Assembly (NCBI GenBank): GCA_019456185.1
Contig: VRUH01000019.1
Location: 1,534 to 65,533, forward strand
Source: Candidatus Glassbacteria bacterium
GTDB taxonomy: Bacteria > Gemmatimonadota > Glassbacteria > GWA2-58-10
Direction: 5' to 3'
DNA length: 64,000 bases
Shown here: piece after piece, positions 1,877 through 61,763 of the stretch
Layout: each line of letters opens with the position of its first letter
How positions within the stretch are numbered: the stretch's first letter is position 1
The notes under the pieces: generated by a model
Seen by the model: only the letters and a program-made list of their open reading frames with translations
What the model was told of the DNA's origin: nothing
Databases searched by the model: none
Position numbers and translations under genes: made by a program

Positions 1877-3154
1877 TCACTCAGGCAAATTGCCGCCGAC
1901 CGCACGTTCGAGTGCAGCCAGTGCTGCCCTATGATTGAATAATGCTTGCGCATATTCCACACGGGTATCAGTCAAGGCCCTTTGGGATTCCAATAGTTCA
2001 AGATATGTTGCCTTTCCTTCCTGGTAGCTCAAACTGGCAACTTCATAGGCCCTTTCCGCCACTTGCAGAATCCGATCCTTGTATAATTGAACTCGGTCTT
2101 CTGCTGCCTTTAAATCCAGAAACGCACTCTCTACCTCCAGAAGCAATTGGTAACGAACTATATTCCTTTCAGCGTCCGCCAAGGCTGTCTCAGCTTTAGC
2201 CTGGACTATTTCACCACGCTGTCGGAACATTGCCCAAATTGGCAATTCCATACCAAAAGTCACATGCCAATAATTGTTTCTCTCGATACTACTCCTGATA
2301 CTCTGACGGAAAACACCAATATTCAAATCGGGAACTATTGACAAAACAGCCACAGATTTGTTGGACTGTGCGGCGGCCAAGTTGAGTTCAGATCCCAGCA
2401 TATCGGGACGGAGATCAATCGCTAACCTTTTTAGTTTTTCAAGATCAGCCTCTAACGGGCTGGAGGCTAAATCTCCATTCAATTCCATCGGGCTATTAGC
2501 CTCGCGAGCCAGCAAGGAGTTCAATGTCGCCCTGAATACTAATAGATCGTTCCTGGCAATTGTCACTCGATTTTCTGCTCGACCGGTTTCTACTTCGGCC
2601 CTCAAAACTTCAAGCTCCGGGACATCACCGGCTTCGAAACGCACTTTAGCCTTTTGCAGAAGATCTTGCGCAAATCGCAAATCCCGTTTTTTGTATTCAT
2701 GGATTTCTTGCGCCAAAAGTACTCGGTCAAAGGCAGTCTTGACCCGGGTTGCTACCTCCAATTTTGTCATCTCAAACACCGCCATCCTAACAGCATCTGA
2801 GCGTTTTCTTGCTACCTGGTTTCGTAGCCACCATTTTAGCGGAAACTCGACTCTCTGGCTTATCCCGATATTGCGCTCGCCATACCCAGCAATGTTAGAA
2901 ACTCCTGGCAACTCTTCATATTCCAGTCTCAATTCCGGATCTGGGAAAGCTCTTGCCTGGATTAACCGGGCCTTGGCGATTTCCCAGTTCTGTCGTGCTG
3001 CTGTAACTTCCGGGTTGTTTTCAATCGCAATCCGTATGGCCTCCGACTTTGTGAGTTGATCGGCGCGAACAAGTTCAACACCCAGACCGAGGATCAAAGT
3101 ACCTGCCATCAGTAAGCCACCAAAATATTGCCCATATAATTGTTTAGGATTCAT
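1877..3154 (-). CDS. czcC: Outer membrane efflux protein, TolC/CzcC family (OMF)
   Basis: ORF 1877..3325. The true start is probably MNPKQLYGQYFGGLLMAGTLILG (a signal-like N-terminus) at about 3154. Coiled-coil-rich TolC-like sequence. Adjacent to the MFP gene. Confidence 0.8.
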   Translation of the reverse strand: MNPKQLYGQYFGGLLMAGTLILGLGVELVRADQLTKSEAIRIAIENNPEVTAARQNWEIAKARLIQARAFPDPELRLEYEELPGVSNIAGYGERNIGISQRVEFPLKWWLRNQVARKRSDAVRMAVFEMTKLEVATRVKTAFDRVLLAQEIHEYKKRDLRFAQDLLQKAKVRFEAGDVPELEVLRAEVETGRAENRVTIARNDLLVFRATLNSLLAREANSPMELNGDLASSPLEADLEKLKRLAIDLRPDMLGSELNLAAAQSNKSVAVLSIVPDLNIGVFRQSIRSSIERNNYWHVTFGMELPIWAMFRQRGEIVQAKAETALADAERNIVRYQLLLEVESAFLDLKAAEDRVQLYKDRILQVAERAYEVASLSYQEGKATYLELLESQRALTDTRVEYAQALFNHRAALAALERAVGGNLPE

Positions 3155-3203
3155 AACTACACGCTCCCTTGCCCTGAAAAGTGCTAATTCGATACGTAGA
3201 ACC

Positions 3204-3240
3204 TGTGTCTTGCACACATGTTTAGAGGGTGCAAGACACA
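3204..3240. promoter_or_regulatory. Imperfect palindrome TGTGTCTTGCAC-N13-GTGCAAGACACA upstream of czcC; candidate operator for a metal-responsive regulator
   Basis: 12-bp perfect inverted arms seen directly, 50-85 bp upstream of the czcC start on the minus strand. No U-tract follows, so it is not an obvious terminator. Confidence 0.3.
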
Positions 3241-3294
3241 CGTATCCAAACTGGCTAAAAAGAATTCTGAGATGTTGAATTGACGCGCTGGAGA

Positions 3295-3741
3295 TTAAAT
3301 CAGGAGGACAACACTTCGCAGGCAAACGGAGTTGATGCTATATGCTGGACAGGGAGAAAACAAGTTTCTTCTGTAAGTAGTCTCAAGGGGTGAGAGTAAA
3401 GATGTAGGATTATCCACAAATTCATACTGAATAATGTGCCTGGCTGCATTTTGGCTTGAAGCGCTAGAAATGTGAGGAGTTTTAACAGACAGAGGTATAT
3501 CGGTACATATACCGCAGTGATCTATAGTACACGATCCTGTTTTCGTACAAAATTGAGATATAACATCTGGAAAATCTTTGGCACTCATTGCTGAAAGAGA
3601 TAGCACTCGAAAAGTGCGCTCGATTTCAATGTGGCCATTAGAATTCACACAAAGGACCGAATTCTCGCTGGCAAAGGCTACAAGCAGCAAGTAAATCAGC
3701 AAGCTAAGACTTGAAATAATATGTATGGAGCCTTTTAGCAA
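3295..3741 (-). CDS. Hypothetical small secreted Cys-rich protein (AT-rich ORF)
   Basis: 148-aa ORF with a signal-peptide-like N-terminus and the Cys cluster CTKTGSCTIDHCGICTD. It lies in a low-GC stretch (3300-4140) between czcC and the tRNA. Codon usage is atypical for the host, so whether it is real is uncertain. Confidence 0.35.
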   Translation of the reverse strand: MLKGSIHIISSLSLLIYLLLVAFASENSVLCVNSNGHIEIERTFRVLSLSAMSAKDFPDVISQFCTKTGSCTIDHCGICTDIPLSVKTPHISSASSQNAARHIIQYEFVDNPTSLLSPLETTYRRNLFSPCPAYSINSVCLRSVVLLI

Positions 3742-4142: not shown

Positions 4143-4219
4143 TGGTGGGCACTACTGGATTCGAACCAGTGACCTCCTGCTTGTAAGGCAGGCGCTCTAA
4201 CCATCTGAGCTAAGCGCCC
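4143..4219 (-). tRNA. tRNA-Val (anticodon TAC), CCA encoded
   Basis: The reverse complement GGGCGCTTAGCTCAGATGGTTAGAGCGCCTGCCTTACAAGCAGGAGGTCACTGGTTCGAATCCAGTAGTGCCCACCA folds as a cloverleaf. The 7-bp acceptor stem has one G-U pair. Anticodon loop CUUACAA. T-loop TTCGAAT. Confidence 0.9.
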
Positions 4220-4545: not shown

Positions 4546-5151
4546 TTACCCGGGTTTGACGACGGCCAGATATTCCGAGATGTGATGGTCGTATTCGCTG
4601 GTGCGACGGAAGACAGCCCGGGCCAGCTCGTAGCGCAGTTTCAGGTCCAGGGCACCGCTGTTGGCCCGCAACTGCCCGGTAACCTCTGCGTACTGCTGAG
4701 GCGATGTCACCACGGCGACCGCGGAGAAATTTTTAGCCGCGCTACGCAGCATTGTCGGACCGCCGATATCGATCTGCTCGACGGCTTCCTCGAGAGTCAC
4801 TCCCTGACGCGCCACGGTCTGCTCGAACGGGTACAGGTTGACCACCACCATGTCGATCAACTCGACATTCAGCTCACGACACTGGCGCATATGGTCATCC
4901 AGGTCGCGACGGGCCAGCAGAGCGCCGTGAACTTTAGGATGGAGGGTTTTGACCCGCCCGTCCAGCATCTCGGGATGGCCGGTGTACTGGTCGACACTGC
5001 GAATCTCGATCCCGGCTTCCGACAGGTGGCGGGCGGTTCCTCCCGTCGACAGTATTTCGGCGCCGAACTCTTTCAGCGTCCCGGCCAGCTCGACAACACC
5101 GCTCTTATCGCTGACACTAATCAGCGCCCGCTTGATCTTGATCTTGTTCAT
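4546..5151 (-). CDS. purH: IMP cyclohydrolase domain protein (PurH N-terminal MGS-like domain only, 201 aa; AICAR transformylase domain absent)
   Basis: VSDKSGVVELAGTL...LSTGGTARHL...DGRVKTLHPKVHGALLARRD...VVNLYPF...IDIGGPTMLRSAAKN are hallmark PurH N-domain motifs. The ORF ends after about 200 aa. Confidence 0.8.
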   Translation of the reverse strand: MNKIKIKRALISVSDKSGVVELAGTLKEFGAEILSTGGTARHLSEAGIEIRSVDQYTGHPEMLDGRVKTLHPKVHGALLARRDLDDHMRQCRELNVELIDMVVVNLYPFEQTVARQGVTLEEAVEQIDIGGPTMLRSAAKNFSAVAVVTSPQQYAEVTGQLRANSGALDLKLRYELARAVFRRTSEYDHHISEYLAVVKPG

Positions 5152-56215: not shown

Positions 56216-58894
56216 TCAGGGAACCACCCGGATGTCGGCGTCGGGGTGGGCGGCCGGGTCGAAAGTGATCACCTCGGAGTCCCCGCCCCAGATCACCCTT
56301 ACGCTCAGCCTGTCCAGACGGACAACCTCCGGCGCCGGATCACCCTCGCGCCAGGGATAGATTACCGCGAGGTAGCGAATCCGGCGGCAGGGTTCCGTAT
56401 TCGAGAGCCAGATATTGTGGGTGACCACCTCGGGGTAATCGCCCTCCCAGTTGCGGTCGTAGCGGGTGATCGGCCTGACATGGGGACGGTAATCCTCCCC
56501 GGTGATCGGGTTGACCAATCCCTGCCCGGCCAGCCTGTCCTCGAATTCGGTTTTCCTGTCGGCGGCCACGCTGACCAGGATGTTGACCCCGCCGAGAGTG
56601 TAGGTGAACTCTCCCCGGCCGCCGTCCCATTCAAGCGGGACCTCCTGCAGAACGTGATAGAGCCAGCTGAATGTGCTGCCCTCCGGCCGCTGAGCCGAGT
56701 CTACCTCGAGATCGTCGAGCATCACGAAATAGCGGCCGTCGACGAAGAGCACGTGACGGTCGGCGCGCAGGAGATACGACAGGTCGCGCTCTTCGTAGGG
56801 ATCGTTTGTCCCGTCACCCAGCTTGCCCCAGAACTCGCGGTAGAGGTAAGGGTACTGGATGTACGAGTTCGCCGCCTCGCCCTTGATGTAGACCGTCCCG
56901 TCGCGCTCGGCGTAGCGCTCGATCCTGGCCGCCCAGGGATTGTGAAGTTCCAGCCGGAAATTGTTCATCCGCGCCGGGTTGGGCTGCGCCTGCCCCAGCC
57001 CGTCAACCAGCACGATATTGTGGCTCATCGAGTGGTGGGCGTGACGGTCTCCGTTCTGGGTGCTGCCGCCGGCGTGGGTGATATTCTCGCCGTAGGCGTA
57101 AATCTGGTAGCCGTTGTCGCTGAAAAAGCTGTGGTTGTAGGCGCCGCGCGGCCGCGCGCGGAAGGTTATCCCCACGTTATCGGCAAAGTTGTCGAGTTCG
57201 CCGGGGTAGAGGTTGCTGGCGCTCACCCAGCCGCCGTCGGGGAACAGCCGCGAGCGCGGGGCCGGTTCCCTGGTCTCCGGCTTTTTGTAGTAATGCGGCA
57301 GGGCATACTCGATCCAGGGCCTGTGGTACTTGCGATGGGTGCCGTAGCCGATCTGCTCCAGCCTGCGGAGGGCATCGCTCCAGCCGGTCAGGAACCGGGC
57401 GTTGCCGGTAAGATAGGCCAGTTTGCGGAAACTGCTGACCCGGTTATTAAGGTAATACGGCTCCATCAGGCCGATATTGCCGAACGAGAGGTGCGGCAGA
57501 CCCATCACGGCCGTCCTGGTGAACCATTCGCCGATATCGTGCAGAAACGGATTGCGGCCGAAATTCGCATCGGCCAGCGCCATGTCGTAGTAACTGACGG
57601 CGAACGTGTGCCACTTGAACTTGGAGAGTCCGTAGCCGGGACCCTCGTTCCACGCATCCTGGCCGAACGGGCTGTTGACGCCGGTGTAATAGTTGACCGC
57701 CAGCTCGTAGGTGGTCTGGAAAATCCCGCCCTCCTCGTAAGCGGCCAGCCCGGCCGGGACTGTGTAGTTGATATTCTCGAACGGGTGGCTGGAGGGCCCC
57801 ACCGCTATGCTGCCGGCGGATACGCGGGTGCCCCTGCGCTGACGCCAGGAGTAGCTGTTGACGATATGGTCGGTGCGCCAGCGGAGGCTTTCGAGCACGA
57901 TCTTGCGCATATCGGCGGTCAGGCGGTCGTGGAACCAGTCGTAGAACAGGCTCAGGTATTCATTGAGCGCAACCGCGTCCTCGCCGCCGCCCTCGGTGCC
58001 GGAGGGCGCGGTAGCCCCGCCGGTGGTCCAGCCGGCGACAGTCACCATCCGGCCGGCTACGGCCAGGAACCTGTTATCGCCGGTGAGCATGTGGGCGAAC
58101 GCCATGTTCATCAGCCGCTCGATTATCAGCATATACGGGTCATCGCCGCCGTCGGGGTCGGGCCAGGCCGGGATATCCGGGTACAGGGCGCGCAGGGAAT
58201 CACGGCCGATAGTGTCGGTGCGGGGGAAGTCGGCGAACCAGGACGCCCGCAGGTCGGCGGTGGCCTCGCCGAGGACTTTCTCGTAGATCTCGCGGCTGAA
58301 CGGGTGGGTTCTGGCCAGGGCGCGCAGGCTGTCGGTGTTGGAGCGGGTAAAGATGATCCGCGGGTGGCCGACGCCCTTGAAATCCGGTTTCGCCAGGCCG
58401 GAGCGGTCCCAGGTGACGGCTTCCGGCGCAATGACGAACGAGCGGGTTTTCCGCCAGTCGATCCCATTTACGAGTTCAGGGTCGTAGTAACCGACCCGCC
58501 AGTAAATCGCGCCCGGCGCTGGAAAGGGGGAGAGCGTGTTGTAGAAATTGAACGGAGTGGCCGGGATATCCACCAGCACGCTGTCGAAATCCGGGTCGGC
58601 GGAGACCTGGAAGCGCCAGTGGCGGATGGGCAGGTGGTTCCGGTCCTCGCGGCCCGGCGGGAGCATGATTGTCGGTTCGTAAGGCCAGCTGAACCGCGGG
58701 GGGTTGAGCCGCACGGTGTCGCGGTCGCCGGGCCGCCAGACCACGGCCAGGTTGTAGAGCATGCTCTCGGACACCGGCTGGCCGCTGTTGGCCCCGGTGA
58801 AGACTACTAATCTCTTTCCTTCAGTAACGGCACCTTTATTACAACCATAAACGAAAACAAAAAAAAGCACTAAGAGTAAGTTACCAGTGCTCAT
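56216..58894 (-). CDS. Heparinase II/III-like (polysaccharide lyase family) lipoprotein, 892 aa; N-terminal ~37 codons are AT-rich
   Basis: Lipobox VYGC. Alpha/alpha-toroid plus beta-sandwich heparinase II/III-like sequence (…GENITHAGGSTQNGDRHAHHSMSHNIVLVDGLGQ…). The first codons use tta/aga/gta, unlike the rest of the gene. Confidence 0.6.
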   Translation of the reverse strand: MSTGNLLLVLFFVFVYGCNKGAVTEGKRLVVFTGANSGQPVSESMLYNLAVVWRPGDRDTVRLNPPRFSWPYEPTIMLPPGREDRNHLPIRHWRFQVSADPDFDSVLVDIPATPFNFYNTLSPFPAPGAIYWRVGYYDPELVNGIDWRKTRSFVIAPEAVTWDRSGLAKPDFKGVGHPRIIFTRSNTDSLRALARTHPFSREIYEKVLGEATADLRASWFADFPRTDTIGRDSLRALYPDIPAWPDPDGGDDPYMLIIERLMNMAFAHMLTGDNRFLAVAGRMVTVAGWTTGGATAPSGTEGGGEDAVALNEYLSLFYDWFHDRLTADMRKIVLESLRWRTDHIVNSYSWRQRRGTRVSAGSIAVGPSSHPFENINYTVPAGLAAYEEGGIFQTTYELAVNYYTGVNSPFGQDAWNEGPGYGLSKFKWHTFAVSYYDMALADANFGRNPFLHDIGEWFTRTAVMGLPHLSFGNIGLMEPYYLNNRVSSFRKLAYLTGNARFLTGWSDALRRLEQIGYGTHRKYHRPWIEYALPHYYKKPETREPAPRSRLFPDGGWVSASNLYPGELDNFADNVGITFRARPRGAYNHSFFSDNGYQIYAYGENITHAGGSTQNGDRHAHHSMSHNIVLVDGLGQAQPNPARMNNFRLELHNPWAARIERYAERDGTVYIKGEAANSYIQYPYLYREFWGKLGDGTNDPYEERDLSYLLRADRHVLFVDGRYFVMLDDLEVDSAQRPEGSTFSWLYHVLQEVPLEWDGGRGEFTYTLGGVNILVSVAADRKTEFEDRLAGQGLVNPITGEDYRPHVRPITRYDRNWEGDYPEVVTHNIWLSNTEPCRRIRYLAVIYPWREGDPAPEVVRLDRLSVRVIWGGDSEVITFDPAAHPDADIRVVP

Positions 58895-58908
58895 ATTAAG
58901 GCGATGAT

Positions 58909-59682
58909 TTATATTGCATTCACTAAAAATTTTTGAATCCCCGATTCATTTGATTCAATATTTGAAAATATCTTTTCCCCAACATCACAATATCTCGCGA
59001 CCACTTTTGTATTTATTTGTTCCAAATCTTCAAAAATGCCCAATGAGCTAAATTCAAATCCCCATTTCTCAAATTGGAAAAGAGTAATTGTTGCGTCTCT
59101 AGTTTTGTCCTCATTAGCCAGAGCAAAAATAAGTAGTGGCCTTTTCATGCTATTGATTCTACAATCAACAACATATTTCTTTTTATTATCTCTTTCCTTG
59201 CTAAACCAATCGAATTCAACTCTACTTTCATCCATATTTTCTAAAATAACTCGCCTGAAATCTTCGTAAAAAATCGATTTTGCTCTTTCTTGAGCTAAAT
59301 ACTCTATATCCGAGATTTTTATTAATCCTTGAATAAAAGAAAATACTGAGTCGCCAAATTCACCATTTTCAATTTTGAGTCTCAACTCCCCTCTATTATC
59401 TTTTATACCGTACTGCTCCAAAGTTGTATTTATTATTTTGTTTCTTGTTCCTCGACTCAAATCGTTTTCTTCCATTTCATATGTCAGATGCATGATTGTA
59501 TGGCCTTCATCTGACAAATACCAGTGCGCACCACTTTTTTTGATTAAAACAACGAAGTGATCACCATCACTAAATGTGAAAGGCGTGGATACAAAATACC
59601 TGTCTATACCTTCTTTTTGTATGTGAACTTTCTCACATATTTTTTTCTTAACTTCTTCTTCTATTTTGGTTATGTTCACCAT
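58909..59682 (-). CDS. Hypothetical protein, DUF1828/DUF1829-like (257 aa), very AT-rich
   Basis: About 30% GC. The N-terminal pattern ...STPFTFSDGDHFVVLIKKSGAHWYLSDEGHT... resembles DUF1828, which is usually paired with DUF1829 in about 250-aa proteins. Stops 14 nt before the heparinase-like gene start. Confidence 0.5.
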   Translation of the reverse strand: MVNITKIEEEVKKKICEKVHIQKEGIDRYFVSTPFTFSDGDHFVVLIKKSGAHWYLSDEGHTIMHLTYEMEENDLSRGTRNKIINTTLEQYGIKDNRGELRLKIENGEFGDSVFSFIQGLIKISDIEYLAQERAKSIFYEDFRRVILENMDESRVEFDWFSKERDNKKKYVVDCRINSMKRPLLIFALANEDKTRDATITLFQFEKWGFEFSSLGIFEDLEQINTKVVARYCDVGEKIFSNIESNESGIQKFLVNAI

Positions 59683-59688
59683 AATAAA

Positions 59689-60159
59689 TCACCAAAGCTT
59701 CATTTGTCCGTCAAGTGACGGTGTAAAACCACATTCTTGCAACATCAAACTCAGTGCACTATCTAAATCAAAAAAACTTTTTGATAATTCTGCGTAAGTT
59801 TCATCCTTCCATGGACTGTCTACATATTTTTCTGTAGCTGTGTGTTTGTGAAAACCACGGAATGTTTCCTTTTCCAAATGATTTGTATGTTCATGTGTAT
59901 TTCCGTTGTAGCGCCGAAGAATTATTATCCTGTTGGTTTCCTGTGGACAATACGCTAAGATCACAGAAAATGACAAGTGATTATGTTGGCTTTGACGCAA
60001 AAGCAACCTGAAATAATTCCCATTCTCGCCCTCTAATTCAAGTTGAGCTTCCTTATTTCTATTTCTAATCTTTAATGTTAGCCTCTTTTTATAATCGGGA
60101 GGTAATCTTTTCTCCTCTCTCAATAACTCTTCTATCCAATCATCTGTTAATTCTTTCAC
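59689..60159 (-). CDS. Hypothetical protein (156 aa), very AT-rich; contains R-x(4-6)-H segment (RRYNGNTHEH)
   Basis: Clean ORF 6 nt upstream of the DUF1828-like gene. I recognise no family. An HEPN-like Rx4-6H motif is only a guess. Confidence 0.5.
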   Translation of the reverse strand: MKELTDDWIEELLREEKRLPPDYKKRLTLKIRNRNKEAQLELEGENGNYFRLLLRQSQHNHLSFSVILAYCPQETNRIIILRRYNGNTHEHTNHLEKETFRGFHKHTATEKYVDSPWKDETYAELSKSFFDLDSALSLMLQECGFTPSLDGQMKLW

Positions 60160-60240
60160 GTCATTCTCCTCAACTAAACATTAAAACCTCCTTAGAATTT
60201 ATTCAAATCAAAACCCTAAATCAATTGTCTTTGTATAAAA

Positions 60241-61686
60241 TCAAAACAGCACCCTGGCCCCGGCCGAGGGCCGCAGGGCCAGCAGGGCGTCCTGGGGGCG
60301 CTGGGCGTAGCGCTCGGCGGCGGCGGGGAATTCCTTGATCGCGTCTTCGTAATATTTCTCCTTCAATGCCGCCAGGACCGTGTCCACCTTGTCATCGGCA
60401 ACGAGGTGGACCGTGCAGCCGCCCCAGCCCGCGCCGGTCAGACGGCTGCCGCTGGTGCCCGCCTCGCGGCCGAAATCGACCAGCAGCTCCAGGCTGGGGT
60501 GGGAAATCTCGAAATCATCGCGGCAACTGATCCAACTGCCGTTCATCCGGCGGCCGAACGCCTCCCCGTCGCCGGCCTCGATCACTTTCACGCTCTCCTC
60601 GACCCGGATCGCCTCTGAGATCACGTGGCGCGCCCGCGCACCGATCCGCAGGCCGTCCTCCGGCTCGGGCAGCGGCTCGCCGGAGCGGGCCGTGTAGAGC
60701 GTGCTTTCCACCTCTTCCAGGGGTTTGTCCAGGAATTCGGCGACATCATGCCTGGTGTAGCGCTCGCGGGTGAAAGTCCGCTCGTGGCCCCTGAGGGTTT
60801 CGACCCTGCCGAGCTTGAAAAAGATATCCCCGATCCGCTCGATACCCTCGCCCTCCAGCCCCATGGTTTTAACCATCATGGCGCAGGCGATCTGGCAGGC
60901 GGCGGGCAGGAGGTTGAACCTGATCCGCGAGACCTCGGTCTTGGCCGAGACAACCATCGAGTTGGCCACGACGATCGTGAAGCCGGCGGGGAGCGCCACG
61001 GGCCGGGCGGAGAGCGGAAAGAAACCGATCCTGAGCGCCTTGCCTTTTTCGCTGAGGATACTGGCGGCGTGATCCATCCCGCCGCCCTGGGTGCCGACAT
61101 ACCACTCGGCCCTGGCCATCAGGTCGGCCAACTCCAGCGGCGGCATGCCGAGGCCGGAGGACTCCAGCACGGCCATCGCCGAGGCGACCACCAGGGTGCT
61201 GCTGCTGGACAGGCCGGAACCGACCGGCACGGTGCCGAGAAACGAGCCGTTGAATCCCTTGAGCTTTTCCACGCCGCCCTGGTGATCGACAATCCCCTGC
61301 ACGCCGGCCTTGATATAGTTGCCCCAGTCGCCGGTGTCGAACTTGGGAATGTCGGGGGAGATCTCGAACTCGCGGTCGTCGTATTCCGGGTTGACCGCAA
61401 TCACCTTCCTGTCATCGCGGGGAGAGAGTGCGATCAGCATATCGTAGTCGATAGCCATCGGGAACACGGGGAGTCCGTTGTAGTCCAGATGTTCGCCGAT
61501 CACGTTGACCCTGCCCGGAGCCTTGAGCACGATTACCTGCTTATCCTCGGGAAACCTTTCGGCGTGGTATTCCAGCACTCGCAGGAAACGGTCGGTGACG
61601 TCGATGTTGTAATGCTTGTCGAGCTGAGCCAGCAGTTCGGAGTCCCTGTCGCCGAGACGGGCGATCAGCTTATCTCTGTCTGTCAT
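60241..61686 (-). CDS. galK: Galactokinase (GHMP kinase)
   Basis: PGRVNVIGEHLDYNG (GalK signature). GHMP motif PVGSGLSSSS. Start MTDRDKLIARL at about 61686. Confidence 0.85.
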   Translation of the reverse strand: MTDRDKLIARLGDRDSELLAQLDKHYNIDVTDRFLRVLEYHAERFPEDKQVIVLKAPGRVNVIGEHLDYNGLPVFPMAIDYDMLIALSPRDDRKVIAVNPEYDDREFEISPDIPKFDTGDWGNYIKAGVQGIVDHQGGVEKLKGFNGSFLGTVPVGSGLSSSSTLVVASAMAVLESSGLGMPPLELADLMARAEWYVGTQGGGMDHAASILSEKGKALRIGFFPLSARPVALPAGFTIVVANSMVVSAKTEVSRIRFNLLPAACQIACAMMVKTMGLEGEGIERIGDIFFKLGRVETLRGHERTFTRERYTRHDVAEFLDKPLEEVESTLYTARSGEPLPEPEDGLRIGARARHVISEAIRVEESVKVIEAGDGEAFGRRMNGSWISCRDDFEISHPSLELLVDFGREAGTSGSRLTGAGWGGCTVHLVADDKVDTVLAALKEKYYEDAIKEFPAAAERYAQRPQDALLALRPSAGARVLF

Positions 61687-61763
61687 CTTGCGGTCTCCCC
61701 GGAGTACTTTTCTGTTGGTATAGTTAACGGCGGAAGCGCTCAAGCCGCCGGCGGATTACCCGT

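Follow-up and report, generated by a model that had tools for sequence, protein, structure and literature searches.

How did a short AT-rich segment with two small genes come to lie between a galK-like kinase gene and the gene of a heparinase-like lipoprotein lyase in a Candidatus Glassbacteria bacterium, and what do the two genes do? The segment belongs to a stretch of 64,000 nucleotides (nt) that was analysed as a whole and is referred to as the window (GenBank assembly GCA_019456185.1, contig VRUH01000019.1, positions 1,534 to 65,533 of the forward strand), and its genes are referred to as ORF-A and ORF-B (open reading frames A and B). It had been singled out from the sequence as a candidate horizontally acquired defence or toxin module inserted between the two flanking genes (the original prediction). 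The answer favoured here, at a probability of roughly 0.6, is a recently acquired two-gene operon, a divergent member of a widespread, obligately paired family, which most likely serves as a self-contained anti-phage module. The acquisition is regarded as recent because the operon still has a base composition of its own, not yet adjusted to the host.

Measured over intervals of 200 nt, the content of guanine and cytosine (GC) fell from 0.64–0.71 to 0.32–0.36 over about 58.80–60.24 kb and then returned to 0.68. The AT-rich island (58805..60240, no strand assigned; 1436 bp with 32–36% GC against ~64% in the flanks) was delimited using the composition profile, GC by codon position and running GC. 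Third-codon-position GC was 0.325 in ORF-A, 0.283 in ORF-B and 0.267 in lyase codons 1–30; in the flanking genes it was 0.853 (lyase codons 31–892), 0.84 (galK) and 0.77 (purD). The right junction was placed by running GC at lyase codon 30/31 (~58805), and the left junction lies directly past the galK stop codon (60241), so that the measured ends fall no more than 10 nt from the break originally proposed at 58795–60250. The galK-like kinase gene of the left flank (60241..61743, minus strand; Pfam GalKase_gal_bdg and GHMP_kinases N and C) keeps the C-terminus that it has in two related loci, L003 and L086 (ending in GARVLF and the stop), and galK, ORF-A, ORF-B and the lyase gene are all on the minus strand. 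The island DNA is foreign. As anticipated, no integrase or transposase was found within ±10 kb of it. Direct or inverted repeats beyond chance do not flank the island, and neither a target-site duplication nor terminal inverted repeats were detected. The sole tRNA gene of the window is at 4143–4219, not at the island, and the features of an integrase-mediated genomic island were not found. Searches for a donor at the nucleotide level gave no match in plasmids and none for a 37-mer in JGI metagenomes; the closest protein homologues of ORF-A and ORF-B are just 46–53% identical.

The two genes are co-oriented and tightly packed, as described before. ORF-A (59689..60159, minus strand; 156 amino acids (aa), GTG start) encodes a small beta-rich protein and is followed after 6 nt by ORF-B (58909..59682, minus strand; 257 aa), a putative effector nuclease. 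Both are intact and full length in the window and retain the invariant core residues of their families. Of the 80 loci fetched, 78 have a homologue of ORF-B that begins 0–69 nt past ORF-A on the same strand; at the remaining two the contig breaks off. From locus to locus, the pairwise identities of A rise and fall with those of B (Mantel r=0.76, a value that 0 of 999 permutations reached); the two genes have co-diverged and have therefore been inherited and transferred together. A and B form an obligate pair.

Relatives of the pair were present in 361 of 185,579 species genomes (one genome per species), from many bacterial phyla as well as Methanoregula and Methanoculleus, and a profile search returned 1326 clusters at 50% identity. 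The GC of the pair is usually below that of its flanks (0.36 against 0.63 at locus L065; 0.46 against 0.63 at L039). At L065 (8001–9250, a metagenome-assembled genome (MAG) of Desulfobaccales) the pair is as compositionally extreme as that of the window, with 0.36 GC in flanks of 0.63, and is not close kin of it (43% and 51% identity). The archaeal pairs (Methanoregula and Methanoculleus; L009, L016, L053, L066, L067 and others) are 47–51% identical to bacterial ones, which indicates that the module has moved between bacteria and archaea. One ORF-B homologue (P0134, 280 aa) has an annotated N-terminal extension, MPELLSEEEISDLISEKKSL, that resembles the ORF-A family N-terminus LxDxEIxxLLxExKxLP; the extension could be what is left of an ORF-A, or ORF-A and ORF-B may here be read as one frame. 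A viral origin of this clade was considered and set aside, just three IMG/VR contigs carrying it.

The DUF1828-like N-terminus that had been read from the 257-aa protein was confirmed using Pfam: DUF1828 (PF08861, gathering score 22 bits) matched ORF-B residues 33–123 over the whole model with 90.4 bits (E=9e-26), and it was also matched by all 35 aligned ORF-B homologues (35/35). The protein further matched phrog_5059 and two models of PDC-M24B, PDLC04539 (6.3e-23, residues 13–148) and PDLC04540 (1.3e-12, residues 31–200). Across the ORF-B family the mean column identity is 71%, with 57 invariant columns. An AlphaFold2 model (predicted local distance difference test, pLDDT, 85) has two domains, of which the DUF1828 domain shows a fold like that of type III secretion system (T3SS) chaperones and DUF2170. 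The C-terminal domain is modelled as alpha-beta-beta-beta-alpha-beta and resembles PD-(D/E)xK restriction endonucleases, with the core fold of that class present in the prediction. D173 in the second strand is invariant and is followed 17 residues on by D/E191-x-K193 at a strand-helix junction; R195, D196, E205, E218 and E221 are also invariant. ORF-B would be the effector, its restriction-endonuclease-like domain predicted to cut nucleic acid and its T3SS-chaperone-like DUF1828 domain perhaps acting as a sensing or regulatory module. Two other assignments were rejected: DUF1829 or another named Pfam family for the C-terminal half gave no match in any of 35 members, and the CRISPR-associated protein 8y75 gave a weak profile match that was not significant (E=0.03).

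ORF-A is harder to place. Its 157 homologues, at 38–52% identity, share the invariant core FSVILAY...RLRRYNGxSHEHTNxxE...FHxHTATExY, and its AlphaFold2 model is beta-rich (pLDDT 90, predicted template modelling score 0.85); no fold relative was found in PDB or BFVD. The protein matches phrog_27326 (4e-21) and has no Pfam, NCBIfam or PADLOC match. DUF6978 (PF22398, gathering score 29.6 bits) did not match the window ORF-A at E<=1; of five relatives compared with the model, P0007 (29.9 bits) and P0051 (31.2 bits) fall just past the cut-off and the other three are unmatched, and the homologue from a Pseudomonas phage scores 46.2 bits. PDC-M24A was matched weakly by 6 of 41 members of the ORF-A clade (best 2.9e-5) and by the phage ORF-A at 1.2e-8. 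ORF-A is thus a remote relative of DUF6978 and not a member, being linked by chained homology below the model's own threshold. The HEPN-like reading of its RRYNGNTHEH segment failed: the R-x5-H string (R83...H89) is conserved, and it lies in strands of the confident beta-rich model; HEPN profiles and folds gave no match. ORF-A, which has an invariant cluster of Arg, Tyr, Asn, His and Glu, would be a stoichiometric partner of ORF-B, serving either to sense infection or to gate the nuclease. A Shine-Dalgarno-like GAGGAG read from the sequence (60166..60171, minus strand) lies 6 nt upstream of its GTG. Just ahead, at 60170–60193 on the minus strand, a perfect AAGGAGG Shine-Dalgarno is followed 5 nt on by a three-codon mini-ORF (ATG TTT AGT TGA) whose stop codon overlaps the GAGGAG; this could be a leader or coupling element, or chance.

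A defence role is likely, and the case for it comes from the company that the pair keeps in other genomes. Neighbours were found by clustering flanking ORFs, followed by PADLOC and Pfam scans. BrxF-BrxC recurs directly upstream of the pair; the HmaA SNF2 helicase recurs upstream with the HmaB DUF1156 methylase downstream; and an 880-aa protein (no Pfam or PADLOC match) recurs ahead of the pair where a type III-like methyltransferase follows it. Further recurrent neighbours are HEC-01A, an HNH protein and a DUF488 protein. Defence-type neighbours were present in at least 28 of the 80 loci, a lower bound because only nine query proteins were used, and all are co-oriented with the pair; they stand on both sides of it in 10 loci, with gaps down to 15–27 nt. 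The pair also occurs in Pseudomonas phages (5399, 5371 and phita81A), where it is co-oriented with cI and downstream of that gene; phage 5399 has, in this order, cI, an 84-aa gene, A and B. The phage ORF-A is a clear DUF6978/PDC-M24A member and the phage ORF-B matches DUF1828/PDC-M24B, so that the phage copies bridge the clade of the window to the catalogued PDC-M24 family. PDC-M24 belongs to a set of 145 candidates that were predicted by guilt-by-embedding, the host systems being BREX, DISARM and type I restriction-modification (Payne et al., bioRxiv 10.1101/2024.01.29.577857, Table S8). Among other PDC/HEC candidates that were tested, PDC-M24 not being one of those, 4 of 8 protected cells (PMC12881386). 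Compared with the PADLOC models, the window ORF-B matched PDC-M24B and the window ORF-A did not match PDC-M24A. The window pair is a divergent relative of the candidate system PDC-M24 and a new divergent member of a catalogued candidate family; it opens no new category. Genomic context elsewhere in the family points to an anti-phage role, as originally suggested: the pair sits inside operons for BREX, Hma and type III-like restriction and within the immunity region of a prophage, and ORF-B matches PDC-M24B.

Several observations weigh against a working defence module in the window. Its two proteins are the most divergent of 74 sequences, and columns conserved at >=90% are kept at 78% (A) and 75% (B), the median being 98%. 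ORF-A matches neither the DUF6978 nor the PDC-M24A model and is without the near-invariant G34, H35, Q113 and G116, and in ORF-B the (D/E)xK motif is non-canonical, K193 being Arg in some members. There is no defence gene within ±10 kb, and the pair stands alone between sugar-metabolism genes. Simple scans gave no promoter-like site upstream of ORF-A (those listed are within coding sequences) and called no terminator-like site. Defence neighbours were counted at loci of the pair only, with no matched control giving the rate near random genes, and the literature searched gave no experimental test of any family member, PDC-M24 included.

How the cassette entered was approached through three related loci, L003, L005 and L086, whose lyases are 63–68% identical to that of the window and whose gene order was compared as far as their contigs reach. 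The upstream order CutA-purD-92-aa gene-galK is kept in L003 and L086, and the downstream order lyase-SurA-PdxA-ABC-FtsX-M23 in L003 and L005; together with the composition break, this order supports the proposal that two genes were acquired horizontally, as a cassette, within a region of conserved synteny. All three relatives have a TPR_12/TPR-S gene (L003 5478–7853; L086 3989–6739; L005 3–599) upstream of the lyase, together with a palindrome rich in GC, and their lyase keeps a native 5' end of high GC. The TPR-S gene has a GC of 0.36–0.49 against ~0.60 in the flanks, and it is probably ancestral because it is common to the relatives at 52–60% identity. The perfect palindrome GGGCGACCGGCCGGTCGCCC and its variants (L003 ~7950; L086 ~6950; L005 ~700) lie ~25–40 nt upstream of the lyase start and could terminate the gene before it or serve in regulation. 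In the window there is no trace of the TPR-S gene, and the palindrome is absent from its whole length, so the event was a replacement and not a simple insertion. Of the predicted insertion between galK and the lyase, the foreign cassette at that place is upheld and the simple insertion is not, three relatives having the TPR-S gene, the palindrome and the native 5' end there. A truly empty galK/lyase site was not found, the TPR-S gene occupying it in L003, L005 and L086. The more distant lyase orthologues at L087, L089 and L093 lie in other neighbourhoods, and L091 keeps the downstream genes only.

The TPR_12/TPR-S gene of the relatives is large, and a hydrophobic stretch at the N-terminus of its product may be a membrane anchor. 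As the TPR-S domain is described as a sensor, the replaced gene may itself have been conflict-related. In L003 only, a DUF559 (Vsr/restriction-endonuclease-like) gene with a GC of 0.41 lies between galK and the TPR-S gene (4591–5001), so foreign DNA has entered the galK-lyase interval on more than one occasion. The idea of a hotspot whose cargo is unrelated from genome to genome was rejected, the TPR-S gene being shared by the relatives at the identity given above, and the palindrome was rejected as a repeated element, given its absence from the window.

The lyase gene (56216–58894, minus strand) begins with an ATG 14 nt past the ORF-B stop. Its native high-GC part, codons 31–892 (56216..58804, minus strand), encodes a DUF4962/heparinase II/III-like lipoprotein lyase (Pfam DUF4962), and its orthologues (~900 aa, 60–68% identical) match Hepar_II_III_C. 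The first 30 codons (MSTGNLLLVLFFVFVYGCNKGAVTEGKRLV; 58805..58894, minus strand) are foreign-encoded and give a lipoprotein-like signal peptide that replaces the native one. Similarity to 16 lyase orthologues begins at about residue 29–31, 'VFTGANSGQP', exactly where GC switches, and the N-terminus before it (MSTGNLLLVLFFVFVYGC...) is encoded by foreign DNA. A foreign, chimeric 5' end had been predicted and is supported by both observations; its extent is ~30 codons and not ~37.

The signal peptide of a lipoprotein cleaved by signal peptidase II (SPase II) is expected to open with a positively charged n-region, to continue with a hydrophobic h-region and to end in the lipobox [LVI][ASTVI][GAS]C. 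The start MSTGN-LLLVLFFVFVY-GC has the h-region and the Gly-Cys; its n-region is without Lys or Arg, and Tyr is unusual at -2 of the lipobox. In the alignment, each of the 15 full-length orthologues (15/15) has an N-terminal hydrophobic stretch ending in Cys, most with Lys or Arg in the n-region, which makes the 892-aa form of the lyase the more plausible one. The NCBI annotation (852 aa, P0241) begins at GTG V41 in the high-GC part and omits the foreign-encoded signal peptide, the stretch concerned being 58774–58894. Random DNA of island composition in this frame yields a lipoprotein-like N-terminus in ~3e-5 of trials, and at no other A-B locus was a lipoprotein gene found downstream of the pair. 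The signal peptide may have come about through selection among junctions, from part of a lipoprotein gene of the donor, or by reuse of a hairpin T-run. The hairpin in question is weak (AGCACTGG...CTTAGTGCT, followed by 8 T; 58859..58891, minus strand), lies within the signal-peptide codons and is a possible terminator of the cassette; its T-run encodes the hydrophobic core. As an intrinsic terminator after ORF-B it was not called by the scan and its stability (-11.2 kcal/mol, z=-1.24) was not significant, and it is kept as a possibility.

Under the favoured reading of a recently acquired defence operon, the cassette would have arrived by illegitimate recombination without an integrase and would have replaced the ancestral TPR-S gene, the GC-rich palindrome and the first ~30 lyase codons. 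ORF-B would act as a sensor-plus-nuclease effector with ORF-A as its obligate partner, and the lyase would now open with a foreign-encoded lipoprotein-like signal peptide and probably be co-transcribed with the cassette.

A more far-reaching joint reading, which we consider doubtful, is that the pair is a mechanistically new two-component immune module and that, separately, the lyase export signal arose from 3' non-coding DNA of the cassette. For the first part, ORF-A would have a fold absent from PDB, and its Arg/Tyr/Asn/His/Glu cluster would carry out a step of sensing or catalysis, new in kind, through which a restriction-like nuclease is controlled; for the second, the terminator T-run may supply the hydrophobic core.

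It is rather unlikely that the pair is a toxin-antitoxin or addiction module, with ORF-B as a nuclease toxin and ORF-A as its neutraliser, that persists because its loss harms the cell. Two small coupled genes that co-diverge in a fixed order, a promiscuous horizontal spread that includes phages and the nuclease-like fold predicted for ORF-B would all suit such a module. Neither protein, however, matches a toxin or antitoxin family in Pfam, NCBIfam or PADLOC, and the homology that defines a type II system was not found; ORF-A is strongly conserved, has enzyme-like invariant residues and no DNA-binding domain, unlike typical type II antitoxins; and the pair sits co-oriented within defence operons. 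Toxin-antitoxin and defence roles are not mutually exclusive.

The pair might instead be a non-autonomous accessory, an added nuclease or regulator, of BREX, Hma or type III restriction-modification, which would make the window copy a functionless orphan. This seems quite improbable: although 10 loci embed the pair between such components at the short gaps reported above and at least 28 of the 80 have such neighbours, most loci (52 of the 80 on this count), the Pseudomonas phages and the window are without such partners. Autonomous systems such as Septu also occur embedded (Payne et al., bioRxiv 10.1101/2024.01.29.577857).

Little credence is given to the window copy being an inert, decaying passenger after a chance transfer, with the rewired lyase as the sole real consequence. 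Both ORFs are intact at full length and keep the invariant core, and ORF-A is preceded by a good Shine-Dalgarno sequence; a GC this low implies that the pair arrived recently and has had little time to decay. The points that speak for a passenger are that this is the most divergent copy, that several near-invariant residues are lost, that there is no defence context and that simple scans gave neither a promoter-like site upstream of ORF-A nor a terminator. The divergence may instead reflect an unsampled low-GC donor lineage.

An assembly chimera, in which reads of a low-GC organism were joined into a high-GC contig, can be dismissed despite the metagenome-assembled source and the extreme compositional break, because two further assemblies, an ENA scaffold (121 kb) and a Logan contig built independently, agree with the window at 100% identity over both junctions, the NCBI records of the same MAG hold identical ORF-A, ORF-B and lyase sequences (not compared as DNA), and the lyase frame runs unbroken through the junction into a plausible signal peptide.

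Taking the pair as a likely defence module, it was compared with known systems. PDC-M24 (PADLOC-DB v2, cassette FAM_00129>>FAM_00065) shares the arrangement of a small protein first and a DUF1828 protein second; it differs in that the best PDC-M24B match spans only the DUF1828 half of ORF-B, and, as a candidate, it supplies no mechanism. Phage lambda expresses rexAB in lysogens from a position downstream of cI. The Pseudomonas phage pairs are like rexA-rexB in position only, with no sequence or fold relation to RexA or RexB, and the window copy is not in a prophage. Similarity to effectors that join a sensor to a PD-(D/E)xK nuclease, such as Can2 (a CARF-nuclease) and NucC, is at the level of fold only, at 4–15% identity to ORF-B, which differs from them in having an N-terminal DUF1828 and not a CARF domain and no cyclic-nucleotide synthase nearby. 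Compared with the CCGG-family type II restriction endonucleases (PspGI, NgoMIV, AgeI, Cfr10I, BsaWI and SgrAI), the cassette has no cognate methyltransferase, sequence similarity is not significant, and ORF-B adds a DUF1828 domain and an obligate small partner. With HEPN toxins ORF-A shares the R-x5-H string and not the all-alpha helical bundle.

The island is not the only lower-GC stretch of the window. Between 600 and 5600 the GC is 0.36–0.50 against ~0.60, and the genes there include HlyD/CusB-like (615–1880) and OEP (1877–3325) efflux genes and a 148-aa ORF without assigned function. The tRNA gene at 4143–4219, a tRNA-Val(tac), lies within it, as does a 201-aa ORF (4546–5151) with an MGS domain and only the first 58 AICARFT positions, which looks like a truncated purH. 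This stretch may be another acquired island, at a tRNA gene.

The pair belongs to a family that is present in hundreds of species of bacteria and archaea and in phages, that its context flags as a likely immune system, and whose small subunit has no structural or biochemical precedent. The position next to cI in phages gives a contextual line for defence that is independent of operon embedding. In the window the pair stands alone and undrifted, which suggests that the two genes suffice for transfer to, and retention in, a new genome. The main value of the locus is as a well-characterised target for experiments. It shows that the acquisition of a cassette can overwrite and rewire a housekeeping neighbour, supplying it with a replacement export signal; if the reading of that signal as derived from the cassette's non-coding DNA is true, this would be a documented signal peptide born from foreign DNA during gene replacement.

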